Below are positions 14,264 through 46,708 of a stretch of 64,000 nt of DNA, piece by piece. How positions within the stretch are numbered: position 1 is the stretch's first letter; each line of letters starts with the position of its first letter. Origin of the DNA: an uncultured Pseudomonadota bacterium (GTDB taxonomy: Bacteria > Pseudomonadota > Alphaproteobacteria > Rs-D84); assembly GCA_947307295.1 (NCBI GenBank), contig CAMZIQ010000002.1:80621-144620 (forward strand), given 5' to 3'. Below the pieces are notes generated by a model. It was given only the letters and a program-made list of their open reading frames with translations, searched no databases and was not told where the DNA came from. The translations under genes were made by a program, and so were the position numbers.

Positions 14264-14273
14264 AAAAAGCAAA

Positions 14274-14367: not shown

Positions 14368-14398
14368 GTTGGGGGGCTAAAATCTTCATAACGAATTT

Positions 14399-14803: not shown

Positions 14804-14905
14804 TAGAACTAAATTTGGTGCAGATTTTTACCATAAAAGGAATAAAAACACACATTTTAGAGTATAAATATTGTGTAAACACTGTTTTCGTGTTATAATT
14901 GCTAC

Positions 14906-16057
14906 ATGTTTTATGATGTACAACCGATTCAGAATAAAGAAGACTATAAAAGAATGTTGACTCTTGTAGGTCAGCTTTCGAATCTTTTTTCTGAGAGCGA
15001 TTGTCCTTATTTATCTTACAGGGCTCATGAAAATATATTTTGTAGATTTTTGGGAGCAGAGAATTTAGCCAGATCTGATTGTTCTGCTGATGCCAAGAAA
15101 GATAAAGTTGGTGTTGGTTTGAAAACGTGGATGGGTAACAATGATCAGAAGGTTGCAGAATTTGGGCGTTTGAAGAATAGTTATGCTAGTCTTTCTGGAA
15201 TTGAATTAGTAAAGAAAATAGCTGAATACAGGAATGAACGCATCAGAATTACAAAGAGGTTACATGGATTAGATTCTATGATATACCATGTTGTAAAACG
15301 TGTTCCCGGAGCTATGCAAATTCTTGAGGGTGTGTTTGACGAGATAAATATAGAAAACATCACATTATTATCAAACACTGGGAACGATAACAACACATAC
15401 TTTACTGATGGAAAACACAAATATCATTTTAGCACATCAAAAAACACTCTGTATATGATATTTGATTTTCTTGAACAGTTGGATTCTTTTGAGGTAAAAA
15501 TATTAGAAAATCCTTATGAATGGTTGTCGAAAGCTACAGATAAAAAAACTATTTCCAAAGACATCAAGAAAGTTGTCAAAGCTATACAAGAGGAATCAGC
15601 AAGAAAACCCCAATTATGTTTGAGATTATATTCGGTAAAGAAGGGTGAAAGGTTTGTTGCTGAGAAGAGTGGTTTAAATCAGTGGAACGCATCAGGAAGA
15701 GCAAGGAATCCTAATGAGTTATATATACCATACCCTAAGGAAGACAGAGACAGAATTCCTAATTTCTTTCCACCAAGAGACACACCTTTTACACTACATT
15801 TGCCAGATGGTACAGCTATTTCTGCTAAAGTGTGCCAAGCAGACAACAAGGCTATAATGAGTAATCCTAACAGTTTATTGGGCAAATGGCTTTTGCGAGA
15901 TGTGTTTGAATTGCCAGATAATACTTTAGTAACATATCAAATGTTAGAAAGGTTTGGTATAGATAGTGTGATTTTCACTAGAAATGCAGAATTAGATTAT
16001 TCCGTAGAATTTTCAGAATTGGGCACTTATGAACGTTTTTATGAGATTGAAGACTAA
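14906..16057 (+). CDS. candidate Type II restriction endonuclease (copy 2)
   Basis: Identical translation at offset +9082. Confidence 0.45.
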   Translation: MFYDVQPIQNKEDYKRMLTLVGQLSNLFSESDCPYLSYRAHENIFCRFLGAENLARSDCSADAKKDKVGVGLKTWMGNNDQKVAEFGRLKNSYASLSGIELVKKIAEYRNERIRITKRLHGLDSMIYHVVKRVPGAMQILEGVFDEINIENITLLSNTGNDNNTYFTDGKHKYHFSTSKNTLYMIFDFLEQLDSFEVKILENPYEWLSKATDKKTISKDIKKVVKAIQEESARKPQLCLRLYSVKKGERFVAEKSGLNQWNASGRARNPNELYIPYPKEDRDRIPNFFPPRDTPFTLHLPDGTAISAKVCQADNKAIMSNPNSLLGKWLLRDVFELPDNTLVTYQMLERFGIDSVIFTRNAELDYSVEFSELGTYERFYEIED

Positions 16058-16102
16058 AAGAGTTTTTGGTTTTTTTATTTTATTTTTTTTTGTTTTATTT
16101 TA

Positions 16103-17149
16103 TTGCGGCGTGCCGCAATTTATGATAGAGTAAAATATGGTTACAGACACAGGAGTTTAAATATGTATACAATAGCATCGTTTTTTGCCGGTGTTGGTGG
16201 CATAGACTTAGGTTTTGAACAAACTAATAAATGCAAAACAATCTATGCTAATGAGTTTGATAGTTATGCAAGTGAGACGTTTGAAAAAAATTTTCCCGAT
16301 GTCAAAGTTGATCAACGAGATATACATGATGTGCCTGAAAAAGATATACCAAATGTTGATATTTTTATAGGCGGTTTTCCATGTCAGGCATTTTCTATAG
16401 CCGGCTACAGACGTGGCTTTGAGGACGAGAAAGGTAGAGGAAATTTGTTTTTTGAGCTTGTTCGTATGATGAAGGCAAAAAAACCTCGTGTTGCGTTGTT
16501 TGAAAATGTAAAAAATTTAGTTAGCCACGACAAAGGGAATACGTTTCGTGTGATTTGTAATGAGTTGGAAAAATTGGGTTATTATTATACATATCATGTT
16601 TTGAATGCCATGGATTATGGGAATATGGCTCAAAACAGGGAACGTATATATATAGTAGCATTCAAAAATAAGAAAGATTTTATAAAATTCAAATGGGCGA
16701 AGACGGTACCTCTAACAACAACAGTAAAAGATATTATAGATTTTACTAAGAAGGTAGACGATAGATTTTATTATACAAAGGGAAAATACAAGGGTGATAT
16801 ATATGAAAGGCTTGTTGAAGCTACAAAAGGTGACGATCCTAAAAATCCGGCAATATACCAATGGCGTAGAAAATATGTTAGAAAAAACAAAAGTGGAGTG
16901 GTGCCAACTCTAACAGCTAATCAAGGTGAAGGTGGTCATAATGTTTGTATTGTAAAAACAAAATATGGTTTGAGAAAAATGACCCCTCAAGAATGCTTTA
17001 ATACCCAAGGCTTTCCAAAAACGTTTTTGTTACCAAAGCAAAGCGATGCACGTTTATATAAGCAGGCTGGCAATTCTGTTTGTGTACCGGTTATACACAA
17101 TATAGCAGAAAACATAGTAACAGCTTTGTCTGACGGCGAAGATAGCTAG
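16103..17149 (+). CDS. DNA (cytosine-5)-methyltransferase (copy 2; start probably 16163)
   Basis: Identical translation at offset +9082, with the same m5C motifs. Confidence 0.9.
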   Translation: MRRAAIYDRVKYGYRHRSLNMYTIASFFAGVGGIDLGFEQTNKCKTIYANEFDSYASETFEKNFPDVKVDQRDIHDVPEKDIPNVDIFIGGFPCQAFSIAGYRRGFEDEKGRGNLFFELVRMMKAKKPRVALFENVKNLVSHDKGNTFRVICNELEKLGYYYTYHVLNAMDYGNMAQNRERIYIVAFKNKKDFIKFKWAKTVPLTTTVKDIIDFTKKVDDRFYYTKGKYKGDIYERLVEATKGDDPKNPAIYQWRRKYVRKNKSGVVPTLTANQGEGGHNVCIVKTKYGLRKMTPQECFNTQGFPKTFLLPKQSDARLYKQAGNSVCVPVIHNIAENIVTALSDGEDS

Positions 17150-17306
17150 AGCTCTTAGTGCGTAGCTGAGATTGTGTAATTATTGCAGGCACAACAAAAA
17201 CTTGAAAAATGTAAGTAACGTGGTATATTTAATGTGAGTACTCGTAAGTGTGCTTGTGACATTAGATAGCGGAACGGGTTTGATCACCCAAGTACTAGTC
17301 TAGATA

Positions 17307-17428
17307 GTGTCCCAACCGAATGGTTGGGATGCCTTGTGCTATACAATAGGTCTTACCGACTAAAAGCCTTGGGGTTCTGTACTTGAATTGATCAACATCC
17401 CAACCGCCTAATAAAGCGGTTGTTTTTT
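17307..17428 (+). repeat. leader-like repeat C (copy 2) ending in a terminator hairpin at the Nuc-like start
   Basis: Identical to 8225..8346 at +9082. Confidence 0.5.
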
Positions 17429-17953
17429 ATGTTGAAAGCTACTGGATGTTTTTTGTTTTTGATTCTTATATTTGAATTGGTTGCATGTAATCAAAATGCT
17501 ATACAACCAATTCAAGAAAACCATAATGATATAAAGATATTTTTTACTCCCGGCACAGAATGTGAAAATAATATTATTGAAAGAATAAACCAATCAAAAA
17601 AAGTGGACATAGCTGTTTATTCAATTACAAACCCTGCTATTACAAAGGCTATTATTTCTGCATATAAACATGGGGTAAATGTAAGAATTGTGACAGATAA
17701 AACACAAGCATCAGGAAAAAAATCATTAGTCTCTCAAATACGTGCTGCCGGAATACCTGTTTTGACTAATAAAAAACACAAGATAGAACATAATAAGTTT
17801 GCTGTTTTTGACGATGTACATGTTGTTTCTGGATCTTATAACTGGACAACAAACGCAACCAACTATAACAGTGAAAATTGCCTATTCTTTGATCAACCAG
17901 ACATGGAATATTCTAAAAGATTTGAGTATCTATGGAAGGTTTATAGTGAATAG
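17420..17953 (+). CDS. Nuc-like PLD-family endonuclease lipoprotein (copy 2)
   Basis: Identical translation at offset +9082. Confidence 0.8.
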   Translation: MFFMLKATGCFLFLILIFELVACNQNAIQPIQENHNDIKIFFTPGTECENNIIERINQSKKVDIAVYSITNPAITKAIISAYKHGVNVRIVTDKTQASGKKSLVSQIRAAGIPVLTNKKHKIEHNKFAVFDDVHVVSGSYNWTTNATNYNSENCLFFDQPDMEYSKRFEYLWKVYSE

Positions 17954-17954
17954 C

Positions 17955-19640
17955 CTAGTAGTATATTTTAAATCCATCGTCTGTACCCAACTCTTCTATC
18001 ACATTTTGTATTCTTTTTATTGTTATTTGATCTACTGTTTGAAATCCTGCTTTGCCTTCTATGGATTTTGGATCAACTTTTTCTGGTATCTGAGAGACGA
18101 TAAAGTTGAAATTTGTACCTTCTTGTTTGTTTTTTAGCAAGCAGGCATGACTAACTACAGATGCTCCACCATACATCTCAAATATCACCCCGGATCGTTG
18201 CCCAATAAGATCCAAAAGCATAGTTATAAGTTTTACCGGTTTTTTTGATCCACTAAATGATATATGACCTTCATTTTGTAGTGTTGATTTAGTGTCTGAA
18301 ACATCCCATATATCACCTAAAATAACAGAATTTTTCAAGGATCCATCTTCTTGTTTTATAAGGCTATCGCTAAAACGCAAATATAAGGCGTTTTTAGAGC
18401 CTTTTTCTAGTAACTTGCCCTTGTACTCGAATATAGGGTCTAAATCGTCTCTATGGGCATAAAAAACGCTTTTATAAGCATTTGATTTGGGGTAAACAGC
18501 TTTGTATAGGTCTTTTGCTATAGTATTGTACATATAATGTTTGAATTCTGGCTCTATTTTGATCATTTTTTCTATGTTTTTAGATAATAGTTCCATGTTG
18601 TGCTTTTTGAATAAGTTTATTATATGAGGTTGCTGTTTCAGGTGGTCAATCAAATATATTTTTTCGTGCACTCCAAAAGTCGAATTTGGTTTTTTGATAA
18701 GATGCTTAAAGGAGTTTTGCCAGTAAGTACTAGATGGAGTGTATAAACGTTGCAGGTGATTTACTTTTGATTTGTCTTTTGCATATACTAATAAATAGGA
18801 TTTTAGTCCGGGTAATCTGTATTGAGTCCTAGATACAATAATAGATGCAGGGGTGCTTGTTTTTATGACGATGTTGTTTATAAAGTTTTCTCTACCGTAT
18901 ACAGAATCCATAAGCACTTTTACATACGCCATTTCGTGCTCACTTACAGATAGAGCAACAAGTCCGTCTGGTTGAAGAAGTTTTTTTACTAATTCAAGGC
19001 GAGGAAAAAGGTGCTCTAAAAGCTGGCACGTTCCGTCAAATGAAGAATTATATGCTAATACAGCTCTGTTTGATGGCATGTTAAAGGGTATGTCCCCGTA
19101 TGCAAGTAACAGTTTTCCTGAGTATTCTGGTAAGAGCCATTTACAAGCATCTATATTATCTTTCACTAGAACAAGATTTTTAGATTTTTCATTATTTGGT
19201 AAGGAGTTGAAAGATTTGTTTGGGTGAAATTTGACTTTTGTTGGAGTGTTTGTTAGTTTTTCTGCCCTTTCTCTTCCATTAAAGTATAGAAATAGTCCGT
19301 TTTTGTTTTGTGTTTGTGTGGTGTTGTTTTTAAAGTCTTCTAGCGATCCAATTATTCCTTCGTATCTATACAGTTGCCCCCATTTTTTACCATTTTCAAC
19401 TTTGCTTATAATTCCGGTGTTGCAGAGAAGTTTGAGTGTGTTGGTGATGGTTGGTCTTGGGATTTTTGTTTGTTTGCATAAAGTTGTGATGTCGAGTTGA
19501 GGGGTTTTGCAAAAAGTATCAAATATGGCTAATGCTGTGTTTTTTGATCTACCAATGTTTTCTATTTTTGCTCGATCTGTAGATATAATTTCTGTATTGA
19601 ATGTATTTATTGTTTTTCTGATGGTTTGTTTTTTTATCAT
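17955..19640 (-). CDS. wHTH plus degenerate amino-MTase-like protein (copy 2)
   Basis: Identical translation at offset +9082. Confidence 0.65.
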   Translation of the reverse strand: MIKKQTIRKTINTFNTEIISTDRAKIENIGRSKNTALAIFDTFCKTPQLDITTLCKQTKIPRPTITNTLKLLCNTGIISKVENGKKWGQLYRYEGIIGSLEDFKNNTTQTQNKNGLFLYFNGRERAEKLTNTPTKVKFHPNKSFNSLPNNEKSKNLVLVKDNIDACKWLLPEYSGKLLLAYGDIPFNMPSNRAVLAYNSSFDGTCQLLEHLFPRLELVKKLLQPDGLVALSVSEHEMAYVKVLMDSVYGRENFINNIVIKTSTPASIIVSRTQYRLPGLKSYLLVYAKDKSKVNHLQRLYTPSSTYWQNSFKHLIKKPNSTFGVHEKIYLIDHLKQQPHIINLFKKHNMELLSKNIEKMIKIEPEFKHYMYNTIAKDLYKAVYPKSNAYKSVFYAHRDDLDPIFEYKGKLLEKGSKNALYLRFSDSLIKQEDGSLKNSVILGDIWDVSDTKSTLQNEGHISFSGSKKPVKLITMLLDLIGQRSGVIFEMYGGASVVSHACLLKNKQEGTNFNFIVSQIPEKVDPKSIEGKAGFQTVDQITIKRIQNVIEELGTDDGFKIYY

Positions 19641-19774
19641 GGTACGCTCTCTCTTGAATCATTATTTTTTATAGCAGAAAATAATGAATAATGCCAATCT
19701 AAAAAAAATAACAAAGTATACATTTTTATCATAATTTTGAGTTCTAATATACATACAAAAAAGGATCTATACTA

Positions 19775-19957
19775 ATGCTAACAAAACCAGAATTCACACA
19801 AGAAAAACTATTGACGGTTACAGAGGCAGCTAATATTTTGAATTTAAAACCTTCTACCTTATACCGTATCAAACAAAATGAAAGGTCTCCCAAAAAGGTC
19901 AAAGTTTGTGGCAGGCTTTATTTTACTCTTTCTTCTATAAACAACATAATGGGCTAA
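19775..19957 (+). CDS. AlpA-like HTH protein (copy 2)
   Basis: Identical translation at offset +9082. Confidence 0.65.
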   Translation: MLTKPEFTQEKLLTVTEAANILNLKPSTLYRIKQNERSPKKVKVCGRLYFTLSSINNIMG

Positions 19958-20791
19958 TCTCTTTTCTAATATCTTTCTCAATTTGTTTATGGGGTTTGGT
20001 AAGAGTAATTCGCCACGTTGTTTGAGCCATAAAGCAAAGATAATGACGGTTTTCAGTTGCTTTATATCAAAATAATTCACTTTATGTGGGTTGAATCTCT
20101 CTTTGCCAAACCAAGTCTTCATTGTAAACAGCTCACTACCTTCGTTGATATGTGGATCTTCGTTGTCTTTTAATTCTTTGACAAGGTAAGCACAAATTCC
20201 CTCTTTATCATAAACACATCTCAAATCAAAAACGGTCTTATAAAACTTATATTTATCAACGATTTTACTAATTGCATCACATAATCTGTAGCCAATATAT
20301 TCGTCATGATCTGTACTTTTGAAGAGAATATGAACATGCCACCAAAAATCATTCTTACCATGTTCCATTACACCAACACATTGTAAAGCGTTTCTAGTCC
20401 AATGATTTTTTTGTTCTATGGCAAGAGTTTGAATTTCTTTGAATAATTTTTTATAAGATTTTTTAGCGTCTTCTCTGTTTCTTGTTCTTCTAAAACCGGA
20501 TTGGGTGCATCTGGGTAGTTTGATTGTCAAAAGATAAGAATAGTCTTCTTGCATTAGTTGTTTTTGCCAATATTTCCTAGAGTCTTGATATTCAGTTTGG
20601 TGATTCCTATAAAAACCATTCAATTCTTCATTTATCTCATTTGTAAATTTAGACATGATTTCCTCTAGCGTTCTAAACCTTCTTCTTATTTTCAATCCAC
20701 GTTCTTCCACATAAAACGTTCTTCTTTTTATTGTTTTACTTAGTTGGGAATGTTGAACATCTAAATTAGAAAATAAATCATAACCATTCAT
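19859..20791 (-). CDS. HUH Rep/MobT-like protein (copy 2)
   Basis: Identical translation at offset +9082. Confidence 0.55.
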   Translation of the reverse strand: MNGYDLFSNLDVQHSQLSKTIKRRTFYVEERGLKIRRRFRTLEEIMSKFTNEINEELNGFYRNHQTEYQDSRKYWQKQLMQEDYSYLLTIKLPRCTQSGFRRTRNREDAKKSYKKLFKEIQTLAIEQKNHWTRNALQCVGVMEHGKNDFWWHVHILFKSTDHDEYIGYRLCDAISKIVDKYKFYKTVFDLRCVYDKEGICAYLVKELKDNEDPHINEGSELFTMKTWFGKERFNPHKVNYFDIKQLKTVIIFALWLKQRGELLLPNPINKLRKILEKRLAHYVVYRRKSKIKPATNFDLFGRPFILFDTV

Positions 20792-21053
20792 TTATTACCT
20801 TCTTGGTTTACTTTGTTTAATGAATGATCAACACACCTTTTGTTTTGGGTGCTAATCAGTTTGAATCAAAAAGCCCGGATTTATAAGGGTTGAAGCGTAA
20901 TCCAATCCAACAGGAGCGATTTGATTTATTTCCTAGAACTGTTTTTTTTCATAAAGTTGTAAAATTTTTCATTCTTTGTGATTTTTTTGAGGAACGATTC
21001 GTAAAAAAAGACAAATTCGATACAAAAATAGGTGTTTTTTCTGGCAGGAGGCA

Positions 21054-21111
21054 AGTGTATACACTTTGTGTATAAAAAATACTTGACATCGGTACACAAA
21101 AAGTGTATACT
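21054..21111 (+). promoter_or_regulatory. switch region copy 2 (TTGACA 21083-21088, TATACT 21106-21111, GTGTAYAC operators)
   Basis: Identical to 11972..12029 at +9082. Confidence 0.6.
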
Positions 21112-21140
21112 GTAGCTGTAACAAAAACAAAAGAGGTGTT

Positions 21141-21683
21141 TTGATGGAAAAATATAGAACAAAGTTTGGTACATGGATCTCTGTATTTTGTGCCAGACAT
21201 GGATTAAACATCGCAAGGGCTGCTTATGAATTGGGGTTGGCTCCTACTACATTGGCATCTATTGTAGCTGGAAGACATCCTTTACCGGTGTTCTTGCGTG
21301 AAAATATCATAGCGACTTTCGGAAGATATTTGTCCGGAACAGATATTGCCGAAATGGATCAAAGCATTGTTGATACAGAGGCAGGAGCTGTGATTGTGTC
21401 AAGGAACTATAAAAAATACGTCAGTGCACAAACAGTGAATGACAAAGAATGGTGTCTAAAACTGATGGATGTAATGGCTAAAGCGACCAATAAAATGAAC
21501 AAGGAGGAATCTGAAGAAATTTATGCTCGTTTGCAAGAGATTGCTGAACGCCCTGCACCAGTATCTATAGAATTAGACAAAGATATAGATATTGAAACGC
21601 TGAGACAAGATATTCGCAGACGGTATAAAGACCCTGTAAAAACAGAACAAATTGTAGAAAAAATAAAAGAACTGAGACAATAA
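21141..21683 (+). CDS. XRE-like HTH regulator (copy 2)
   Basis: Identical translation at offset +9082. Confidence 0.6.
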   Translation: MMEKYRTKFGTWISVFCARHGLNIARAAYELGLAPTTLASIVAGRHPLPVFLRENIIATFGRYLSGTDIAEMDQSIVDTEAGAVIVSRNYKKYVSAQTVNDKEWCLKLMDVMAKATNKMNKEESEEIYARLQEIAERPAPVSIELDKDIDIETLRQDIRRRYKDPVKTEQIVEKIKELRQ

Positions 21684-21797
21684 AAAATAAAGTGGGTGAA
21701 CAAGCTGCAACCTGCTCACCCTAACAAACACCAAACGAGTTGGATGTCTGCCACAAAGTCATTTTAGCTCGTTTGGATCAAAAATCAAGAACCAAAG

Positions 21798-23111
21798 GTG
21801 ACTAAAATGAGCAAACAAGAAAATATTACACAAACATTAGTAAATAAAATCGTATACAACATCGAAAAAGGCAACACGTCTGAATTATGTGATGTGTGGG
21901 ATTCTAAGACATCAGGTTTTGGTATACGAGTTGGCAAAACCAATGCATCTTTTATTTTCAAATATAGAAATAAGGCAAACAAAGCCCAAACAAAAACATT
22001 TGGTAAAATAACCGAAATGTCTGTTGCTGAGGCTAGAAATCTATTGGACGCATTTAAACCAACAATAAAATCTGATCTTGCAACAATTCAGAAAACTAAT
22101 AAGAAATATACGGTGAAAGATTTATGTGAAAAATATCTTGCGGAACACCAAACTCGTGCAACAACGAAAAAACAAGACGAAAGCAGGATTGAAAGACACG
22201 TCTTGCCAACACTTGGCAACATACCATTACATTTATTGACAGCTAAAGATATTATGAATGCACAAACGGCTATTGCAAACGGTGATAAAAAAATAATTAT
22301 AGCAGGACATAAAAACCCAAATAATCCACATTCATATATCAAAGTATCTGGCGGTCAAGGTGCTGCTAAAAGGGTTATGGAAATGCTGAAAACAATTTTG
22401 AATTTTGCAGAAGACGAAGAGTTGATTGAAAAAAATCCTATGAATTCTCGTAAATTCAAAAAAATCAAATACGATAAAAAAGAAACAGCGTATCTCGAAA
22501 ACAACAATTATGAAAATCTTGGTTATTTGTTGAAAAAGCATGAACAGCAATCAAAGAAAAGCAATCAAAGTGTGTTGTTTATAAAATTATTGGCTTTGAC
22601 GGGCTGTCGTAAAGGTGAATTATTAGGTCTTACTTGGAATCGAGTAGATTTTACCAACCAATATTTTGTGTTTGCTAAAACAAAAACTACAGGGGAACAA
22701 AAACGATATTTTGGATCTGCAGCAAAAAGATTATTGTTAGATATGCACCAAAAAGCTACATCCAACTACTTGTTCCCTAGTATTACAAAAACAGGTACAC
22801 ATAGAAAAGATTGTTTGAGAGCTTTAAAGCAGATTTGTAAAACAGCACAAGAAAACAAAAGTCAATTTGATGCAATACAAAAACTAACCCTACATGGTCT
22901 TAGACATTCATTTTCAACAATGTGTAACACCCTCTCTTTTCCCGATGTAATTAGAGAAGGACTTATGGGGCACAAGAATGGTGGTGTACAATATATTTAT
23001 ACACACAATACACATAACACAATGATTGAACATGCAGATAAAGTATCAGAAAGTATCAACACGTTGTTAGATACGGGATGTAAAAAAGCAGAATTGGAAA
23101 ACAACAACTAA
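21798..23111 (+). CDS. int: tyrosine integrase (copy 2)
   Basis: Identical translation at offset +9082. Confidence 0.92.
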   Translation: MTKMSKQENITQTLVNKIVYNIEKGNTSELCDVWDSKTSGFGIRVGKTNASFIFKYRNKANKAQTKTFGKITEMSVAEARNLLDAFKPTIKSDLATIQKTNKKYTVKDLCEKYLAEHQTRATTKKQDESRIERHVLPTLGNIPLHLLTAKDIMNAQTAIANGDKKIIIAGHKNPNNPHSYIKVSGGQGAAKRVMEMLKTILNFAEDEELIEKNPMNSRKFKKIKYDKKETAYLENNNYENLGYLLKKHEQQSKKSNQSVLFIKLLALTGCRKGELLGLTWNRVDFTNQYFVFAKTKTTGEQKRYFGSAAKRLLLDMHQKATSNYLFPSITKTGTHRKDCLRALKQICKTAQENKSQFDAIQKLTLHGLRHSFSTMCNTLSFPDVIREGLMGHKNGGVQYIYTHNTHNTMIEHADKVSESINTLLDTGCKKAELENNN

Positions 23112-23123
23112 AGAGGTAAAAAA

Positions 23124-23345
23124 ATGAAATTTATAACAGAAAGAGAATTAGCTAAATTTTTATCGAATGAATATGGTTTGCCAACATCGAAAAAATCATT
23201 AGAAAAATTACGTGCAAAAGGTAAAGCACCAAATTTTAGAGTTTGGGGTGGAAAAATTGTATATGAAAAGCAAGATGTACAGACATGGCTCAACAATCAA
23301 ATGGCGATTTGTTACAAGTACACAATGCCAAAATATAGCATATAA
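23124..23345 (+). CDS. excisionase-like HTH protein (copy 2)
   Basis: Identical translation at offset +9082. Confidence 0.55.
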   Translation: MKFITERELAKFLSNEYGLPTSKKSLEKLRAKGKAPNFRVWGGKIVYEKQDVQTWLNNQMAICYKYTMPKYSI

Positions 23346-23422
23346 AAAAAGCAAAATGCTCCCAATATGCTCCAAAATGATAAAAACCACAAAACTAACA
23401 CAAACACTAGAGAATCAAAAAA

Positions 23423-23449
23423 CCCCGGAAATCCGGGGTAAATCTTTTT
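23423..23449 (+). terminator. Rho-independent terminator after xis (copy 2)
   Basis: Identical to 14341..14367. Confidence 0.5.
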
Positions 23450-23480
23450 GTTGGGGGGCTAAAATCTTCATAACGAATTT

Positions 23481-23528
23481 CACGATGTCAACGTGACGCT
23501 CTAGCCAACTGAGCTAACCACCCAAAGC
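23481..23528. repeat. att core copy 3 (attR; orphan tRNA-Val 5' half next to the native upstream flank)
   Basis: Exact 48-bp direct repeat. Downstream sequence diverges from the element (gaaagtattataacaactt...). Confidence 0.85.
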
Positions 23529-23623
23529 GAAAGTATTATAACAACTTATTTTGGATTTGCAAATAAAAAACCAGAATTATTAGTTTTTATCTTGATGATT
23601 TTTTTAAAGTTTGCTAGACTTGT

Positions 23624-34147: not shown

Positions 34148-34759
34148 TTGATTAGAAAAGCAGGTAATAACATGATTCTTTTGTTGTATTTTTTATATGT
34201 ATTGGTTGCGATAGTTTTTGTTTTAGATTGTTATTTAATATTGAAATTTATTGAATTTGTCTATTGTGCGCATGTTCTTAAACAACCACCTATGGCAGCA
34301 AGTGTTAAAGATTTAAGAAAAACTGTTGTCAAAGAAATAAATAAATATTATAAAAACGCTAAAAATATTTGTGATTTTGGTTCTGGATTTGGTGGCTTGG
34401 CGCGTTATATTTCTAAAAATACTGGGGCAAATGTATATGGTCTGGAAAATATGCCGTTCAGCGTGTTTATATCAAAATTGTCTGATTATTTTTGCAAGAC
34501 AACTAATAAAACAATTTGGTGTAATGGTTTTGATTACATGGATAAAACCAAGACAAAATTTGATGTTATTGTTGCCTATCTTGGACCTGATTTAACACCG
34601 CATTTATTAAAGTATAAAAATAAAATGCGTGTATTGATATCTTTAGATTTTAAAATCAAAGGTTTAAAACCAACCCGTATAACAAAGGTTGGTTCTGGCG
34701 CAACGATTTATTGGGGTAAATTATATCCGCACAGGTTATACGTATATGAATTTAAATAA
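34148..34759 (+). CDS. class I SAM-dependent methyltransferase with N-terminal transmembrane helix (start probably internal Met, MILLLYF)
   Basis: Motif I ICDFGSGFGGLARYI and the post-I acidic residue YGLEN. Hydrophobic N-terminus. Confidence 0.55.
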   Translation: MIRKAGNNMILLLYFLYVLVAIVFVLDCYLILKFIEFVYCAHVLKQPPMAASVKDLRKTVVKEINKYYKNAKNICDFGSGFGGLARYISKNTGANVYGLENMPFSVFISKLSDYFCKTTNKTIWCNGFDYMDKTKTKFDVIVAYLGPDLTPHLLKYKNKMRVLISLDFKIKGLKPTRITKVGSGATIYWGKLYPHRLYVYEFK

Positions 34760-39641: not shown

Positions 39642-40514
39642 TTACTGAATCGCTGGTCCCGCAACAAATGTTCCGCCACCAGCATTTGTAAAAAATGTTT
39701 GACTAACAGTATCATACATTCCCAAAACATTATCAGAATTGCGCTTTGCTGGAATCATATTACGAACTGGTGAACCGTTGTCTGACAATGTAAAATAATA
39801 AATTCTGATTCTAGTATTGCTTGAACCTGTTGTTGTGCCACGATTCCAAAAGAATAAATAACACGAACGTTGTCCTTGATAAGATGTATACCATCCAGTT
39901 GTATATGCAGTACCATTGATTGTCACCGTATTTTTATTCATTGTGACAGTATAATCTGTTTTTGGACTAAACGCTGGTCCTGGTCGTACTAACGCACTGC
40001 TGGTATTTGAAGTTGGATATACAACATCAAAAAGACTCTCGTAATTAATTTTGTAATAAAACAATGCGATTTCCCCGCCATTCCAAGCACTTCCATTACC
40101 TGCCCCGAATATTGCACGATTTCCATTATCGCTTTGAACATTGAATTTTACTGATATATTTGAATTTGCATTTAATGTCACACCAGTATCTATGTACGCG
40201 TAATCGGTGTTTTCTAGATATTCTAAATATGTATATTCTTCTTTTATCGTCCAGCCATCGAATATATAACCTTGGGCGGGCGGTGTTGGTTCTGGTGGCA
40301 AAGTCAAAGTTCCACCATATTCACAAGATTGTGCATCATTTGGTACTGACAATTGTGTATTACCATTATACCAACTAAGCGGAACTGTTGTAGCAAACAA
40401 CGATGTACAAAAAATACTAGCCACGGATAATGTCCAAAATAATTTCATGTTATTTGCCCCCTTTGCCTTTAACAAATAACCGCCGAAAATCAGGCGGTTG
40501 GAGGTTCGAAACAA
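39642..40514 (-). CDS. secreted protein with a Listeria-Bacteroides (Flg_new)-like repeat motif; start most likely ATG at 40448 (MKLFWTLSVASIFCTSLFA) after RBS aggggg
   Basis: Signal peptide and the GYIFDGWT (GYxFxGW) motif. The N-terminal 22 codons of the track ORF run through repeat B and its terminator hairpin, so they are probably not translated. Confidence 0.5.
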   Translation of the reverse strand: MFRTSNRLIFGGYLLKAKGANNMKLFWTLSVASIFCTSLFATTVPLSWYNGNTQLSVPNDAQSCEYGGTLTLPPEPTPPAQGYIFDGWTIKEEYTYLEYLENTDYAYIDTGVTLNANSNISVKFNVQSDNGNRAIFGAGNGSAWNGGEIALFYYKINYESLFDVVYPTSNTSSALVRPGPAFSPKTDYTVTMNKNTVTINGTAYTTGWYTSYQGQRSCYLFFWNRGTTTGSSNTRIRIYYFTLSDNGSPVRNMIPAKRNSDNVLGMYDTVSQTFFTNAGGGTFVAGPAIQ

Positions 40515-40879: not shown

Positions 40880-43048
40880 ATGTTTGGTATATTTAAAAAA
40901 TCAAAAGACGAAGAACATGTTTTAAACAATCCTGTTGCGGTTGAATTTCAATACGGTGGTGAAACAGTTCGTTTGGAAACAGGTCGTTATGCGAAACAGG
41001 CAACTGGTGCAGTAATGGCTACAATGGGTGGCACAATGGTTTTGGCAACTGTGTGCGCTGAAAAAACAGCAGTCGAAGGGCAAGATTTCTTTCCTTTGAC
41101 CGTAGATTATCAGGAAAAATACGCATCTGCTGGTCGTATTCCAGGTTCCCGCGATAGACGCGAAGGAAAATCTAGCGTAAATGAAACTTTGACAGCGCGC
41201 CTTATTGACAGACCTATACGTCCGCTTTTCCCAGAAACATTTAAGAACAAAGTTCAAATTATTGCCCAGGTTTTTTCTTATGATAAAAAGAATCAGCCTG
41301 ATATTTTGGCAATGATTGCGTCATCTGCGGCATTGGCAATATCTGGTGTTCCTTTCCAAGGGCCAATTGGTGCTGCGCGTGTTGGATACAAAGACGGGCA
41401 ATATGTTTTAAATCCTTCTAAGAAAGAAGTTGAAGATTCTCAAATGGATTTGGTTGTTGCTGCGACCAAAGACGGTGTTTTGATGGTAGAATCTGAAATC
41501 GGTGAATTGGATGAAAAAACAACTTTGGGTGCTGTGAAGTTTGGTTTTGATGAACAACAAACTGTTATCAAAGCAATTAACGAATTCGTTGAAAAGGCTG
41601 GTAAAGAACGTTGGGAAATTCCAACTAACAGCGAAGAATATGTTGTTATGGAAAAAGATTTCGAACAATTCGCAAACGAAATCACAGATGCTTTGTTGAT
41701 TAAGGAAAAATTGGTTCGCCTTGATACATTGGCTGAAATTCATGCAAAAGCAAAAGCACGTATTCCAGAATTGTTCCCAGAAACCACAACGGCTACATCT
41801 ACATTGGAATCATGGGCTGATGAAATAGTTGAAAATATTACTGCACGTATTATGCGTGGAAATATTTTGGCTGGAAAACCTCGTATAGACGGTCGTGATA
41901 CAAAGACAGTTCGTCCAATTGAAATTGAATTGGGTGTATTGCCACGCGCACACGGTTCTGCATTGTTTACACGTGGTGAAACTCAGGCTTTGGTTTCATT
42001 GACTTTGGGTGGTGGCAAAGATGCGTTGCCAATCGAAGCTTTGGACGGTGACAGCGAACGTGATTTCATTTTGAATTATAATTTCCCAGGTTATTCAGTC
42101 GGCGAAGCCAAAGGTTTAAAAGCCCCAGGTCGTCGTGAACTTGGCCATGGTAATTTGGCATGGCGTGCTGTGCATCCAATGGTCCCAACTCGTGAAGAAT
42201 TTGATTATGTAATTCGCGTATGTTCTGACATTTTGGAATCTAATGGTTCTTCATCTATGGCGACAACATGTGGCGCTACATTGGCGATGATGGACGGTGG
42301 CGTTCCTATGAAAAGACCGGTTGCAGGTATCGCAATGGGATTGATTAAAGAAGGTGATGATTACGCAATCTTGACTGATATTTTGGGTGACGAAGATCAC
42401 TTGGGCGACATGGATTTCAAAGTGACAGGAACAAACAAAGGTATCACAGCTTTGCAGATGGATATTAAAATCACATCAATCACTTTTGAAATTATGGAAC
42501 ATGCGCTGGCCCAGGCTAAAGATGGTCGTATGCATATTTTGGGTAAAATTGAAAAAGCGATTAAGGCACCAAGAAAATCTGTGTCTGAATATGCGCCACA
42601 AAGTTATGCTATGAAAATCAATCCTGATAAAGTTCGCGAAGTAATCGGCAAAGGTGGTTCGGTTATTCAGGCTTTGACACGTGATACAAATACTCAAATC
42701 GAATTAGAAGACGATGGCAGTATTAAAATTATGGCTGTATCCAAAGAAGATGCAGATGCTGCAATCGCACGTATCAAAGAAATAGTTGCAGAACCAGAAG
42801 TTGGCGAAATCTATGAAGGTGTCGTTTCTGGTGTTAAAGATTTTGGTTTGTTTGTAAAGATTTTGAAAAATTTTGAATCTATGGTTCATATTTCTGAAAT
42901 CACAGGTGAAAGATTAAACAAAATCGAAGATGCTAAAATCAAAGAAGGCGATAAAGTTTTTGTAAGATATTTGGGCACAGATAAACGCGGTAAAACACGT
43001 ATGTCTATGGTTGGTATCGATCAAAAAACTGGTAAAGAAACGAAATAA
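40880..43048 (+). CDS. pnp: polyribonucleotide nucleotidyltransferase (PNPase)
   Basis: Two RNase PH domains, KH (VIGKGGSVIQ) and S1 C-terminus, 722 aa. Confidence 0.95.
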   Translation: MFGIFKKSKDEEHVLNNPVAVEFQYGGETVRLETGRYAKQATGAVMATMGGTMVLATVCAEKTAVEGQDFFPLTVDYQEKYASAGRIPGSRDRREGKSSVNETLTARLIDRPIRPLFPETFKNKVQIIAQVFSYDKKNQPDILAMIASSAALAISGVPFQGPIGAARVGYKDGQYVLNPSKKEVEDSQMDLVVAATKDGVLMVESEIGELDEKTTLGAVKFGFDEQQTVIKAINEFVEKAGKERWEIPTNSEEYVVMEKDFEQFANEITDALLIKEKLVRLDTLAEIHAKAKARIPELFPETTTATSTLESWADEIVENITARIMRGNILAGKPRIDGRDTKTVRPIEIELGVLPRAHGSALFTRGETQALVSLTLGGGKDALPIEALDGDSERDFILNYNFPGYSVGEAKGLKAPGRRELGHGNLAWRAVHPMVPTREEFDYVIRVCSDILESNGSSSMATTCGATLAMMDGGVPMKRPVAGIAMGLIKEGDDYAILTDILGDEDHLGDMDFKVTGTNKGITALQMDIKITSITFEIMEHALAQAKDGRMHILGKIEKAIKAPRKSVSEYAPQSYAMKINPDKVREVIGKGGSVIQALTRDTNTQIELEDDGSIKIMAVSKEDADAAIARIKEIVAEPEVGEIYEGVVSGVKDFGLFVKILKNFESMVHISEITGERLNKIEDAKIKEGDKVFVRYLGTDKRGKTRMSMVGIDQKTGKETK

Positions 43049-43104: not shown

Positions 43105-43398
43105 ATGGATATGGAAGCTTTGATGGCGCAAGCCCAAGATTTGCAATCAAAAATATCATCTGCCCAAGATTCTCTTGGCAATATGCATGTCAAAGGGATT
43201 GCAGAAAACGGTGCTGTGGTTGTTGATATGACCGGAAAATATGATATAGTTTCTGTGAATATCAATCCAAATGCTTTGTCTTTTGGTGCGGAAAAATTGT
43301 CTAAATTGGTTTTTGATGCGTATAAAGATGCAAAAGAAAAAGCCGATGTTTTAATAGATAAAACAATGTCTGCAATTACTGGTGGATTGACAGACTGA
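43105..43398 (+). CDS. ybaB: nucleoid-associated protein YbaB/EbfC
   Basis: 97 aa. MxxLMxQAQxLQ N-terminus and conserved core VKGIAENGAVVVDMTGKYDIVSVNIN. Confidence 0.85.
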   Translation: MDMEALMAQAQDLQSKISSAQDSLGNMHVKGIAENGAVVVDMTGKYDIVSVNINPNALSFGAEKLSKLVFDAYKDAKEKADVLIDKTMSAITGGLTD

Positions 43399-43427: not shown

Positions 43428-43452
43428 AAAACCGGGGTAAAACCCGGTTTGA
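43428..43452. terminator. bidirectional hairpin accggg-gtaaaa-cccggt flanked by A/T runs (terminates tRNA-Val(TAC) on minus and ybaB on plus)
   Basis: Read directly. T-run on the minus strand after the tRNA 3' end. Confidence 0.5.
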
Positions 43453-43457: not shown

Positions 43458-43534
43458 TGGTGGACGTTAAGAGACTTGAACTCCTGACCCTCTGCGTGTA
43501 AAGCAGATGCTCTAGCCAACTGAGCTAAACGTCC
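43458..43534 (-). tRNA. tRNA-Val (anticodon TAC), CCA encoded
   Basis: RC: GGACGTT-TA-GCTCAGTTGGCTAGAGC-A-TCTGC-TTTACAC-GCAGA-GGGTC-AGGAGTTCAAGTCTCTT-AACGTCC-ACCA. D-arm identical to that of tRNA-Val(GAC). Confidence 0.88.
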
Positions 43535-43640
43535 AAAGCGATACACATAATACCTTAATTTTTTAATTTGTCCAGAAAAAACTGCATTTCAATTTGAAAT
43601 ACGGTCAAAAATATGATACAATTCGGGTAAGAATAGGGGG

Positions 43641-44051
43641 GTGTCTGTGAAAAAGTATATTTTTCCCATATTGATGATATTTGCATTTTTATGTGAAGCT
43701 GATGCAGCGGTAAAGATTAAAAATTCCACAGAAACGCGTTATGAAGAACAATATTATGAAACTTCTGGGGACGCGGAAGATGCTGGTGATATCGCTACGT
43801 TGGAAAACGATATTCGTATATTAGACGAAGAAATTGCAAAGTGTAAAAAGCAAAAGAAAGGCTGGATAGCTGCAACCGTTATCGGTGCTGCTGGAACGGT
43901 GGCTACGGGTGTTGCCGCCGGTGTTCAGGGTGTAAAGCTTCGTGATAAAAAAGACGATTATAGGGAACAAGCCACAGAATTGGGCAAATTAGACAGACAA
44001 AAAGCAGAACTGGATAAACAGATAAAAGCAGAAGAGGCGAAGAAAAAATGA
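43641..44051 (+). CDS. secreted/membrane glycine-zipper coiled-coil protein (136 aa; GTG start, possibly at 43647)
   Basis: Signal peptide, Gly-zipper segment GWIAATVIGAAGTVATGVAAGVQG, and a K/E-rich coiled coil. Paralogous N-terminal architecture to the next gene. Confidence 0.5.
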   Translation: MSVKKYIFPILMIFAFLCEADAAVKIKNSTETRYEEQYYETSGDAEDAGDIATLENDIRILDEEIAKCKKQKKGWIAATVIGAAGTVATGVAAGVQGVKLRDKKDDYREQATELGKLDRQKAELDKQIKAEEAKKK

Positions 44052-45889
44052 GAAAATATTTTCTGATTGGATTATTGGTTTCTTTGATGCCGAATATTTG
44101 TTTGGCATACGGTCCACGTTATACACAATTGGTGCGTGAAAAAGAACGCAAAATGGCTGAATTGGAAAAATGTATGGGTTCGACCAAGGGATTAAAGATA
44201 GCGGGCGTATCCACGTTGGGATTGACTGCCGCCGGGGTTGCGGGCAATATCGCAGAAGCCAGCGCGATAAAAAGTTATGATAAAAAGATAGATAAAGCCA
44301 AAGACGATATTAAAAAGGCACAAAAAGCCGTAGATGAAAAAGATGCCGAATTAAATAATTTAAAACAACAAAATCAGCAACCTAATCAAAACCAACAAGG
44401 TAATGCACAAGCATCAAGCGCGAATAATCCATCCAACAGCGAATGTCCAGAATTTGCAAATACACCAAATGTGGTAAAGACAGAAAAGAAAGAAGATAAA
44501 TGCGTAATTACCGAATGTGCCGAAAATTTTAAACCCGCCGAAAACGGACAAATTTGCGTGCCAGCGAAAGATTGTGGTCCAATAAAATTATTGTACGGTG
44601 ATTATTGTGTAGATTTTTGTCCAGATGGTACAAAAGAATATATGCGCGTTTGTCAAGATGAAGAAACAGCAAAACATAATTTAGAATTTGATAAAAAAGT
44701 TAAAGAATGTCTTAAACACGGCGCTGCTGGTTATTCAGAAGGAAAAGGTTGTTTGTGTCAAAATGAGAACACACATCAATGGGATGAAAACAAAAAACAA
44801 TGTGTCGAAAAAACAGACGAGTCTGAAAATAAAAAATCTGAAGAGTGTCATAATAAAGTTGCTCATGAATTTATAAATGGTATACCAAGCAAATATGATA
44901 CCTTATACCAAAATAATTTATCTGCATTGCGAAACCGTACTGCTGATGCGGATGGAACTATAGATTTTGTTTGTACTTGTAACAAAACAGCAGTATGTGA
45001 AAAAGGGAAAAACTGGTCAGAATGTAAATATGCTTATGATGTTTTACCAGATATCGCAAGACATTACACAAAAATGCATGCCTTAAATGAAGAATGTGGT
45101 GAAACAAATGACGACACTATGCAATATTTGAAAATTAAGCCAACAACAGAACAAACAAAGAAAGACCAAAAAGACTGTATAAAGGAAGTTGCGCAAAGTT
45201 TTAAAAATGAGATACCTGATGGGTACAAAACCCATTATAACGAACTTTTGGGACAGTTAAAAAGTCAAACAGCAGAAGAAGCTGGTTTTGTAAATCCTGT
45301 GATGAATGGTATAACAATAACTTGTAAAAAAGGTCAAAAGTTTGAAAAATGTGAAAATGGTAAAGATGGTTTGGCAGCTATAGCGAAAGACTATACCATG
45401 AATTATGCAAAAAATGATAAATGTGGAACAAATCATCCAACAGTTCCAACACTTACAATTCATCCAACAAAAGAAAGTGAAAAATCAAATCGTCCAGAAA
45501 AAGCGGAAGACGATATAGATTGTAAAAAAAATGTAGAATATTACGCCAAGCAGAAATGGTATTTTGATGTAAATTCGAGTGAGATTGGCAACGAGTATGA
45601 ATTAGCGGTTAGAAACGATATTGATGTTTATAATAAGTACAAAGCAAAGGTGCAAGAAATATACGAAAAAGAAAAGACGGAATTTGATAAACATATAATA
45701 CAAGAAGGTGAAACGAAACAATGCGATGCTTATAGTGTATCGTATAAAAAATGTCCAGATAAAACATATGAAGCATGTGATAAGAATTATTATATTTGTA
45801 GTTTAGCATTGGTGGCGGACGCCATACAAAAACAAGTAGGACCACAGTATATAAACGAAATGGTAGAAGTAATATGTAAAAATAAATAA
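44048..45889 (+). CDS. secreted Cys-rich protein: signal peptide, Gly-zipper, coiled coil, Q/N-rich linker, then Cys-rich region with two tandem ~110-aa repeats
   Basis: Internal repeat ECHNKVAHEFINGIPSKYDTLYQNN... versus DCIKEVAQSFKNEIPDGYKTHYNEL.... Multiple CxxxC/CxC spacings. No homolog recognised. Confidence 0.5.
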   Translation: MRKYFLIGLLVSLMPNICLAYGPRYTQLVREKERKMAELEKCMGSTKGLKIAGVSTLGLTAAGVAGNIAEASAIKSYDKKIDKAKDDIKKAQKAVDEKDAELNNLKQQNQQPNQNQQGNAQASSANNPSNSECPEFANTPNVVKTEKKEDKCVITECAENFKPAENGQICVPAKDCGPIKLLYGDYCVDFCPDGTKEYMRVCQDEETAKHNLEFDKKVKECLKHGAAGYSEGKGCLCQNENTHQWDENKKQCVEKTDESENKKSEECHNKVAHEFINGIPSKYDTLYQNNLSALRNRTADADGTIDFVCTCNKTAVCEKGKNWSECKYAYDVLPDIARHYTKMHALNEECGETNDDTMQYLKIKPTTEQTKKDQKDCIKEVAQSFKNEIPDGYKTHYNELLGQLKSQTAEEAGFVNPVMNGITITCKKGQKFEKCENGKDGLAAIAKDYTMNYAKNDKCGTNHPTVPTLTIHPTKESEKSNRPEKAEDDIDCKKNVEYYAKQKWYFDVNSSEIGNEYELAVRNDIDVYNKYKAKVQEIYEKEKTEFDKHIIQEGETKQCDAYSVSYKKCPDKTYEACDKNYYICSLALVADAIQKQVGPQYINEMVEVICKNK

Positions 45890-45912
45890 AACCGGCATTT
45901 GCCGGTTTTAAT
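45890..45912. terminator. bidirectional terminator aaccggc-attt-gccggtt plus T-run (recurrent hairpin family)
   Basis: Read directly between convergent genes. Confidence 0.6.
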
Positions 45913-45955: not shown

Positions 45956-46708
45956 TTATCTTTTCTTTTGCCAAGCGTTTGCACGGCGGACATAACCTTT
46001 GGCAAGTTCGGTATCAAACAATGCTTTTTCGCTGAACATGGTTTGTGATTTTAATTTTCCTTCGGCGTCTATCCAGATATCGCGATGTTCAGGGACAACA
46101 GCGTTTATTTTGTTCAAATTTTCAATAACGTTATCTGGGGACATTCCACCACTGTATCCCATTGGGTGAGTTTCGTAAATTGGTTTTTGCCACGCCTTTG
46201 GTGCGATGCCATTTCCGCCGCTGGCATCAAAAAGCAAAGAAAATTTTGCACCGGTATTATGCATTTTTTCTATTGCTGATTTCGTGTTATCATTATATTG
46301 AAAAATAAATTCATGGTGCGGGAAATCGTGTATAATCTTAGCCAGCCCGTCTGTATCTATATTTGTGGCTGTTATTTTTGGCATATTTAATTGAATACGT
46401 TTGATAAGTGGTTTATTATGAGATTTTTCAAGTTTTATCCAATCTAGGACAATATTTGGAATTTTAGCCCCAGCACAAATATCATTTGCCCATTCTTGAT
46501 TAATATGGATTGCTAAACTGATACGGCTGCCTTGGTTAACCGCATATAATAAATCATTAAACCAAACATTTCGTGGCATACCTTCACTCATTTTCGAAGG
46601 GTGGCATTGAACAGCGACTTCTGCATGGGGCAAATGCGCCAAATCTATGATAGACTTTATTGAATTGTGTTCACGTGGGTCAGAACAAGTTATATATCTT
46701 AATTTCAT
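45956..46708 (-). CDS. phosphoribosylanthranilate isomerase (TrpF)-like TIM-barrel protein
   Basis: LLFDASGGNGIAPKAW and GYSGGMSPDNV resemble the PRAI D-x-GGxG...FDW and AGGLxxxNV motifs. No other trp genes in the window. Confidence 0.45.
   Translation of the reverse strand: MKLRYITCSDPREHNSIKSIIDLAHLPHAEVAVQCHPSKMSEGMPRNVWFNDLLYAVNQGSRISLAIHINQEWANDICAGAKIPNIVLDWIKLEKSHNKPLIKRIQLNMPKITATNIDTDGLAKIIHDFPHHEFIFQYNDNTKSAIEKMHNTGAKFSLLFDASGGNGIAPKAWQKPIYETHPMGYSGGMSPDNVIENLNKINAVVPEHRDIWIDAEGKLKSQTMFSEKALFDTELAKGYVRRANAWQKKR

Follow-up and report, generated by a model that had tools for sequence, protein, structure and literature searches.

Two Overlapping Genes Encode Exported Proteins with Related Architectures

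Within a 64,000-nucleotide (nt) stretch of DNA from an uncultured alphaproteobacterium of the order Rs-D84 (GenBank assembly GCA_947307295.1, contig CAMZIQ010000002.1, positions 80,621 to 144,620; hereafter, the window), two adjacent open reading frames (ORFs) on the + strand overlap by 4 nt through the sequence ATGA. ORF A (43641 to 44051) has a GTG start and encodes 136 amino acids (aa), and ORF B (44048 to 45889) has an ATG start and encodes 613 aa. Judged from their sequences, the pair is best explained as an undescribed, co-transcribed module of two subunits, in which A would be a small conserved partner and B would carry a payload behind a conserved N-terminal region, the N-module. Because homologs of A start with MKKY and a GGGGGG Shine-Dalgarno-like run lies 5′ of 43647, the true start of A is probably the GTG at 43647. 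All features of the two ORFs described below are on the + strand.

Protein A has 275 close homologs of about 115 to 150 aa. An exhaustive hidden Markov model search yielded 159 clusters at 50% identity, and all 150 matches listed are 59 to 247 aa long. A Sec signal peptide can be read directly in the sequence (residues 1 to 22; 43641 to 43706): KK is followed by YIFPILMIFAFL and then by CEADA↓AV, with an A-D-A↓A cleavage motif, and the same region reads FAFVFDADA↓AVKIKN in the family. An amphipathic helix (residues 49 to 73; 43785 to 43859) ends in the invariant C68 and a KKQKKG collar. Read off the alignment, the a/d series of its heptads comprises I51, L54, I58, L61, I65, and C68, so that C68 occupies a d position and continues a perfect series; mature A has exactly one Cys in 118 of 120 family members. 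Next comes a Gly/Ala zipper, GWIAATVIGAAGTVATGVAAGVQG, with a small residue at every fourth position (residues 74 to 97; 43860 to 43931), and the protein closes with a K/E/D-rich helix (residues 98 to 136; 43932 to 44048). AlphaFold2 (AF2) predicts a helix over residues 49 to 135, with a predicted local distance difference test (pLDDT) score of 62 to 84 for residues 101 to 136. The zipper is near-invariant across the family, as is the core of A, DIATLENDIRILDEEIAKCKKQKKGWIAATVIGAAGVVATG.

In protein B, conservation among 63 homologs is limited to residues 1 to about 100, where identity is 50 to 66%. Its Sec signal peptide (residues 1 to 20; 44048 to 44107), likewise read directly in the sequence, consists of RK, YFLIGLLVSLM, and PNICLA↓YG, with invariant P15 and C18 residues, the latter at −3 relative to the predicted site of cleavage. 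The helix before the zipper, RYTQLVREKERKMAELEKC...KG (residues 21 to 47; 44108 to 44188), has invariant L28, K32, K35, L39, E40, and C42, of which the lysines K32 and K35 sit at core-like positions. The family alignment and profile comparison place a Gly/Ala zipper, GLKIAGVSTLGLTAAGVAGNIAEAS, at residues 48 to 72 (44189 to 44263). By composition, a K/D/A-rich coiled-coil stalk follows (residues 73 to 106; 44264 to 44365), and after it a Q/N-rich low-complexity linker (residues 107 to 131; 44366 to 44440; 32% Q and 28% N). The near-invariant sequence of the N-module is RYTQLVREKQRKMEELEKCMGSTKGLKIAGISTLGLTAVGVAGNIAEA; the N-module has one Cys, besides the even number of Cys in the payload.

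An initial annotation of the window, made from the sequence alone, had described A and B as a secreted paralogous pair with a Gly zipper and a coiled coil in each and a Q/N-rich linker in B. The signal peptides, the zippers with the charged helices that follow them, and the linker, 60% of whose residues are Q or N, bear out that description.

The Cores of A and B Are Homologous and May Pair

The paralogy of A and B is barely visible in the two sequences themselves: their Smith-Waterman alignment is weak (z = 4.3, with 2 of 500 shuffles reaching the score). Comparison of the two family profiles, however, gives a probability of 95.3% and an E value of 2.2e−8 (hhalign), over an alignment that spans an E-x-x-K-C-x4-K-G motif, the zipper, and the coiled coil. 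As judged by these profiles, the cores of A and B are homologous. Each protein starts with a signal peptide and a helix, which lead to an invariant Cys, a basic collar, a Gly/Ala zipper of 21 to 24 residues, and a coiled coil, and in both the invariant Cys precedes the first hydrophobic residue of the zipper by seven.

The 21 residues before the invariant Cys carry opposite net charges in the two families (for A, −5.5 ± 0.75 over 120 homologs; for B, +1.9 ± 0.74 over 48). Together with the Cys itself and the lysines at core-like positions of B, the opposite charges suggest that A and B form a disulfide-stabilized hetero-oligomer and not homo-oligomers.

A and B Are Strictly Linked in Gut and Rumen Alphaproteobacteria

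The named homologs and genome records are all metagenome-assembled genomes (MAGs) from rumen or gut, labeled Candidatus Enterousia, Alphaproteobacteria, or uncultured proteobacterium. As far as sampled, the module is restricted to reduced-genome gut and rumen Alphaproteobacteria, namely, Candidatus Enterousia of the order Rs-D84 and other alphaproteobacterial MAGs. Enterousia genomes measure less than 1 Mb and are devoid of respiration and of most pathways for biosynthesis, and it has been proposed that Rs-D84 bacteria rely on partner cells for metabolites (PMC12306168). The initial annotation had reasoned from host-interaction factors of intracellular bacteria. That premise finds no support in this organism, a gut or rumen bacterium of the Candidatus Enterousia/Rs-D84 lineage, for which dependence on other cells is proposed (PMC12306168).

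Gene B lies directly 3′ of gene A in all 33 loci fetched via homologs or by genome scan. The same arrangement is found in 38 of 44 more distant metagenome loci, which were recovered with a profile built on nine sequences; the other six have little or no DNA past A. Two B genes with different payloads accompany a single A gene in some loci, in the order A-B-B (L005/L006, L023, and L026) or B-A-B (L018 and L075), consistent with several payload subunits sharing a single conserved partner. Each of 20 species representatives of the GTDB has one locus.

In Enterousia, the gene order pnp-ybaB-A-B-(orf250)-rlmN-surA-lptD-lptFG is kept, where orf250 denotes a 250-aa ORF. Beyond Enterousia, the neighbors vary (e.g., smpB, ftsI, recJ, and acpS) and the A-B pair stays intact, so the pair is a self-contained two-gene module. 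Across the genus, A and the N-module of B diverge at about the rate of YbaB and SurA (50 to 75% identity where polynucleotide phosphorylase has about 90%), and the C terminus of B is not alignable. These comparisons extend the initial annotation from a pair of proteins to a strictly linked, family-wide module with A as the conserved partner and the N-module of B as a generic payload carrier.

Past some of the distant A-B pairs lie additional small secreted proteins that lack the N-module (L028, 5672 to 6247 and 6275 to 6874; L030, 6967 to 7605, with 10 Cys by hand count), which suggests local clusters of disulfide-rich secreted proteins near these pairs.

B Carries a Cysteine-Rich Payload That Is Predicted to Lie outside the Cytoplasm

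The payload of B contains 28 Cys past residue 130 and can be divided into four parts. R0 (residues 132 to 262; 44441 to 44833; 12 Cys) is predicted to consist of small β-hairpin modules with Cys spacing like that of epidermal growth factor (EGF) domains and is the first hypervariable block between strains. In R1 (residues 263 to 372; 44834 to 45163; 6 Cys), four Cys are at conserved positions and the other two form an additional CTC pair, and R2 (residues 373 to 488; 45164 to 45511) has the four conserved Cys. The R3 tail (residues 489 to 613; 45512 to 45886; 6 Cys) is replaced by unrelated sequence in a near-identical strain and has a relative in the P0007 tail, at 34% identity.

Self-comparison of the payload upholds the two tandem Cys-rich repeats of about 110 aa that the initial annotation had proposed. 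Residues 264 to 376 align with residues 374 to 488 at a Smith-Waterman score of 172, where shuffled sequences average 29.7 (z = 27, 0 of 500 shuffles). The identity is about 34%, and the period is 110 aa. The flanking Cys-rich parts (residues 132 to 262 and 489 to 613), tested in the same way as extra copies, gave z values of about 0 or below; therefore, there are two repeats only. The repeat unit, with its four invariant Cys, occurs once each in about 12 other B alleles, and neither a Pfam scan nor a profile search of PDB sequences assigned it to a family (nothing at E < 0.1 in PDB).

The structure prediction that had been suggested for the repeats was run on residues 125 to 613 with AF2 (mean pLDDT 71.5). 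It gave the order helix, helix, β hairpin, helix for both repeats (pLDDT between 80 and 95: about 80 to 92 in R1 and 88 to 95 in R2), β hairpins at about residues 134 to 175 of R0 (pLDDT 85 to 91), and a helical, low-confidence R3 tail. The top Foldseek matches of the payload in the PDB are the EGF domains of factors Xa and IXa (E ~ 1), and matches to the Pfam families cEGF, EpCAM_N, and CPL1-like in relatives are all below the cutoff. The payload has a possible likeness to small disulfide-rich modules of the EGF type in the peaks of its Cys gaps, in its predicted hairpins, and in its top structural matches, but these matches are all below significance and the 110-aa unit fits no known family.

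The number of Cys in the payload is predominantly even: in 60 of 63 close homologs (counted past residue 110), in 83 of 92 non-identical C termini, and in 23 of 24 complete distant B proteins in which the core Cys was located. In the 92 C termini, the gaps between Cys peak at 2, 4 to 5, and 11 to 14 residues, as in EGF-like modules; CxxC makes up 0.7% of the gaps, and His makes up 1.1% of the residues.

Across relatives, B ranges from 95 to 1159 aa, always with the same N-module. Many distant B proteins are minimal, with the N-module, a G/S-rich linker, and a 40- to 60-aa tail that has 2 to 8 Cys and often ends in CxC. One distant B carries ankyrin repeats, one is a long A/Q/K-rich fibrous protein, and one (L045, 1222 to 2307) has a Peptidase_M23 payload (62.4 bits versus a cutoff of 28.7; E = 4.8e−17). 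The M23 domain acts on peptidoglycan. Given this activity and the Cys parity, the C terminus of B is expected to lie outside the cytoplasm, and the weakly hydrophobic zipper would therefore not be a stop-transfer anchor with a cytoplasmic C terminus. As an observation of its own, the M23 protein of L045 may represent a version of the module that degrades cell walls, which bears on a possible predatory or epibiotic lifestyle.

An alternative topology would make A and B inner-membrane proteins, with the zipper as a stop-transfer anchor and with the coiled coil and a metal-binding Cys-rich region in the cytoplasm. The Kyte-Doolittle mean of the zipper of A (1.61) reaches the usual threshold for a transmembrane segment, Lys-rich flanks lie on either side of the zipper, and one relative has ankyrin repeats. 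Yet the zipper of B contains K, S, T, and N and has a mean of only 1.41, and the even Cys parity, the rarity of CxxC and His, the EGF-like spacing and top structural matches, and the M23 payload all speak for a payload outside the cytoplasm. We consider this topology disfavored and highly improbable, and a cytoplasmic zinc-binding region was rejected on the spacing and parity of the Cys.

When the C-terminal 484 aa of B were used alone as a query, the homolog search found only B itself and its one allele. An exact look-up of the B protein of the window matched no record. A separate C-terminal domain of about 70 aa, with the motif CWC[KR]...W[VL]F...C..C...C....[FY]R, ends several distant B-like proteins (L031, 6395 to 7576; L028, 3093 to 4427, − strand; and B-like ORFs of L041, L049, and L065), as well as a secreted protein of 444 aa without the N-module. 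Pfam does not recognize this domain in the scanned B-like proteins; it might serve them in common for binding or sorting.

The Payload of B Varies as a Recombination Mosaic

Comparison with a near-identical strain (L032) resolves the variation of B into blocks. Proteins of the neighboring genes are 98 to 100% identical between the two strains, with a synonymous divergence (dS) of 0.01 to 0.05, and A is 98.4% identical, whereas B is only 72% identical. Residues 1 to 127 of B are identical (dS ~ 0). They are followed by a divergent block at residues 128 to 220 (dS 0.60, nonsynonymous divergence [dN] 0.39), a 44-aa indel at about residues 220 to 264, a second divergent block at residues 265 to 296 (dS 0.13, dN 0.17), a stretch of 99% identity with two substitutions at residues 297 to 490 (dS 0.009), and unrelated sequence at residues 491 to 613. 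Because dS in the variable blocks is 10 to 30 times the background, these blocks were evidently imported by recombination from divergent alleles. The dN/dS ratio is 0.66 over residues 128 to 220 and 1.3 over residues 265 to 296 (the latter from few sites), which shows relaxed or diversifying selection. Among 92 C termini of B, 18% of pairs have any similarity, and the median coverage of 39% in those pairs indicates module shuffling.

A conserved N-terminal part and a variable C-terminal part are also the hallmark of polymorphic toxins, and B could, by this likeness, be a polymorphic toxin or bacteriocin with a trafficking N-domain and exchangeable toxic tips, A being its chaperone or export partner. 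The tail does switch abruptly from 100% identity to unrelated sequence, one relative has an M23 payload, and the small Cys-knot tails resemble disulfide-rich peptide toxins. Unlike in polymorphic toxins, however, no immunity gene co-varies with the tail of B: the gene downstream is convergent and 99.2% identical between strains with unrelated B tails. The B protein of the window has no recognized toxin or trafficking domain and no PADLOC match, its variability is internal as well as terminal, and its locus is single copy and syntenic. We rejected this explanation for want of a co-varying downstream gene and regard it as disfavored and very unlikely.

A and B Fall outside Known Families but Resemble Several Known Systems in Part

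Neither A nor B has a match above threshold in Pfam, NCBIfam, PHROGs, or PADLOC, and a search of PDB sequences with the A-family profile returned nothing at E < 0.1, in agreement with the initial annotation, which had recognized no family. Below the thresholds, two weak signals bear on the function of the pair.

The first, which is the most consistent of the weak signals, is a match of A to NF033928, the family of alpha-xenorhabdolysin subunit A, at 25.8 bits. Eight of 10 distant relatives also match, within an overall range of 15 to 29 bits against a cutoff of 125. The match is limited to about positions 169 to 264 of the 339 in the model, over a helix, a hydrophobic segment, and a helix. Since none of five reversed-sequence controls matched, the signal is, at this level of comparison, not purely compositional. 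One relative has weak NheB and NheC matches as well. Like the XaxA/YaxA binary toxins, A and B are two helical subunits encoded by adjacent genes, with a coiled coil broken by a Gly/Ala-rich hydrophobic segment, and the weak, direction-specific matches fall on that region. They might then be a released, minimal binary α-helical pore-former, similar to XaxAB/YaxAB or to two-peptide bacteriocins, whose helix-tip-helix segments, with the Gly/Ala zipper at the tip, would insert into the membrane of a partner cell under targeting by the head of B, and nutrient leakage would feed the dependent bacterium. The obligate adjacency of the genes, the proposed partner-dependent lifestyle, and the M23 payload of one relative would suit such a function. 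Against it, the scores are five-fold under the cutoff and cover only about 80 of the 339 model positions (about a quarter), no solved XaxA/YaxA-type toxin subunit is among the PDB sequence matches at E ≤ 10, A and B are only one-third or so as large as XaxA, and their hydrophobic segment has about 22 residues and not the roughly 40 of a double-helix hairpin. The pair further differs from these toxins in its Sec signal peptides, in the large disulfide-rich payload of B, and in its single-copy, vertically inherited core locus, which is unlike that of accessory toxins; no immunity-like gene lies nearby. We therefore hold a pore-forming pair to be distinctly unlikely.

The second signal is a spanin-like match over residues 57 to 121 of B (TIGR03495 LysB, 17.8 bits versus a cutoff of 92.75, E = 0.0031; phrog_89, E = 0.0013); A has no PHROG match. 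As in Rz-like i-spanins, a hydrophobic segment precedes a periplasmic coiled coil, the Cys are fit for intermolecular disulfides, and the genes overlap. Unlike i-spanins, A and B have a cleavable signal peptide and an extra helix before the hydrophobic segment, and unlike spanins of a lysis cassette, they are not accompanied by a holin, an endolysin, or a lipoprotein o-spanin. Their chromosomal context is one of housekeeping genes, with pnp, ybaB, tRNA-Val, orf250, and rlmN as the neighbors. A phage spanin was rejected on this gene context.

A further possibility is a structural tether of the periplasm, functionally similar to a spanin or Lpp, whose zipper would be held either by the inner membrane or by the periplasm-facing leaflet of the outer membrane (OM), with the C-terminal knot or domains of B bound to peptidoglycan or OM components; the variability of B would then reflect weak constraint. 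Besides the spanin-like matches (E of 1e−3 to 3e−3) and the conserved Cys, a tether would account for the conserved place beside surA-lptD-lptFG in Enterousia, for the minimal forms of B with tiny tails, for the peptidoglycan-directed M23 payload of one relative, and for the retention of the module in genomes smaller than 1 Mb. To our knowledge, Alphaproteobacteria lack Lpp, which we also count in favor of a tether. However, a block mosaic with dS at 10 to 30 times the background and orthologous C termini that cannot be aligned are typical of exposed and not of periplasmic structural proteins, the neighborhood is not kept beyond Enterousia, and EGF-like, ankyrin, and long fibrous payloads would be odd in a tether. 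On balance, a tether seems rather unlikely to us.

Two further comparisons concern the anchor. The Gly-zipper OM lipoproteins (SlyB/Pcp and the Rickettsia 17-kDa antigen) are likewise exported envelope proteins with a (G/A/S)xxxG zipper that is thought to be seated in the membrane. A and B differ in having heptad coiled coils and an invariant Cys on the flanks of the zipper, and the Gly-zipper Pfam families PF05433, PF13488, and PF13441 gave no match at E ≤ 1 for either protein. The signal peptides end without a lipobox L-[AS]-[GA]-C (FLCEADA↓A in A, PNICLA↓Y in B, and PNICFGAS in the consensus of the B family), and a lipoprotein reading was rejected on that ground.

In overall design, B resembles modular variable surface adhesins such as Vaa of Mycoplasma hominis (PMC524362), with its conserved N-terminal anchor, coiled-coil stalk, and C-terminal cassettes swapped by recombination; a looser likeness is to type IV pilins, with their conserved N terminus and disulfide-bonded variable end. 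Unlike Vaa and the pilins, to which it has no sequence kinship, B belongs to a diderm organism, has an obligate paralogous partner, and lacks pilus or lipoprotein processing signals. The window was also searched for silent cassettes and for additional copies of either gene, and none was found, a further difference from adhesins of the Vaa type.

Neighborhood of the Gene Pair

Upstream of A and B lie pnp (40880 to 43048) and ybaB (43105 to 43398). A terminator-like hairpin (43429 to 43450) and a tRNA-Val(TAC) gene (43458 to 43534, − strand) stand side by side between ybaB and A, and the gene pair therefore has its own upstream intergenic region. In that region, a promoter-like site on the + strand (43594 to 43622) has a TTGAAA hexamer, a 17-nt spacer, a TACAAT hexamer, and a TG before the −10 element; it is a consensus match only (10 of 12 positions), of a kind no commoner in the region than in shuffled sequences. 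Directly past the stop codon of B, a 10-bp hairpin (45887 to 45910) is terminator-like on both strands and is common to B and the convergent downstream gene, orf250 (45956 to 46708, − strand). The product of orf250, a conserved ORF, belongs to no Pfam family and has a faint likeness to phosphoribosylanthranilate isomerase (E = 0.03). In some relatives, two tandem, putatively homologous genes for proteins of 249 and 250 aa occupy its place. Past orf250 follow rlmN and a surA-like gene, likewise convergent with B.

Elsewhere in the window, two more ORFs are less conserved than their neighbors in the comparison with L032, at 87% (34208 to 34756, + strand) and 92.5% (39645 to 40448, − strand) aa identity. 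The dS value is 0.22 for the latter and 0.15 for parB, relative to the background of 0.01 to 0.05, and these may be further recombined or fast-evolving genes. A 9.18-kb segment with seven ORFs occurs twice in tandem (5308 to 14486 and 14390 to 23568; 99.85% identity, with 12 mismatches and two gaps). The copies overlap by about 97 bp at the junction, and an extra 98-bp copy with 86% identity lies at 23472 to 23568; the tandem is either a recent genuine duplication or an assembly artifact.

A and B May Form an Anchored Stalk for Exchangeable Payloads

We propose, tentatively and with somewhat less than even confidence, that A and B form a Sec-exported, probably disulfide-linked stalk that anchors in a membrane and displays variable payloads outside the cytoplasm, probably to make contact with cells. 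After export, the two proteins would pair through the zipper and coiled coil, and the invariant Cys at a heptad d position in each, along with the opposite charges of the helices, would favor a disulfide-locked A-B hetero-oligomer. The Gly/Ala zipper would embed the stalk in an envelope membrane, which it would either span or enter as a re-entrant tip, and the coiled coil and the Q/N linker would keep a disulfide-bonded head off the membrane. In the window, this head would comprise EGF-like modules and the two four-Cys α/β repeats. It would be extracytoplasmic and most likely exposed at the surface, where it could bind partner or host cells, and selective pressure exerted by phages, immunity, or changing receptors would have driven its diversification. 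The initial annotation had seen in B an exposed interaction factor, and that part of its claim, unlike the intracellular setting, is consistent with the Cys parity, the EGF-like spacing, the hypervariable C terminus, and the mosaic.

Several observations weigh against this proposal, at the level of both the stalk and the head. For the pairing, charge complementarity is clear in Enterousia and weaker or mixed in distant pairs, and the e/g positions, read residue by residue, do not give a clean parallel heterodimer. The AF2 model of the A monomer is one long helix with a mean pLDDT of 56, falling below 50 across the zipper, and is uninformative on assembly. The absence of respiratory chains in the lineage (PMC12306168) puts periplasmic disulfide formation in question. 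The hydrophobicity of the zipper is borderline for membrane insertion in A (Kyte-Doolittle 19-residue mean of 1.61; Hessa sum of +3.2 kcal/mol) and, by the same 19-residue mean, in B, so embedding in a membrane is putative. As for the head, the payload could stay in the periplasm, since no route across the OM was identified, and because minimal B proteins with only a 40-aa Cys knot are widespread among relatives, the core function need not be adhesion.

A bolder version of the proposal, which on the present sequences we think doubtful, is that A and B constitute a new anchoring or delivery device of the diderm envelope. In it, the disulfide-locked coiled coil would place zipper helices in the OM or in the membrane of a partner cell, and the device would be the main cell-contact organelle of Rs-D84. 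If so, a Sec-exported protein would display or deliver arbitrary payloads, among them EGF-like knots, an M23 hydrolase, and ankyrin repeats, with no need of a β-barrel, a lipid anchor, or a secretion system of its own.

The A core and the N-module of B represent two families, and the repeat unit represents a four-Cys domain of about 100 aa, that are new to Pfam, NCBIfam, PHROGs, PADLOC, and the PDB sequences. The pair may also represent a new way to anchor variable proteins in a diderm envelope. Even if its role proved to be a structural one in the periplasm, it would remain a component of note in the envelope, specific to this lineage. Strictly conserved, kept in genomes smaller than 1 Mb, and reshuffled in its head, the A-B module is a concrete candidate for the machinery by which Rs-D84 bacteria such as Enterousia may contact their partner cells.

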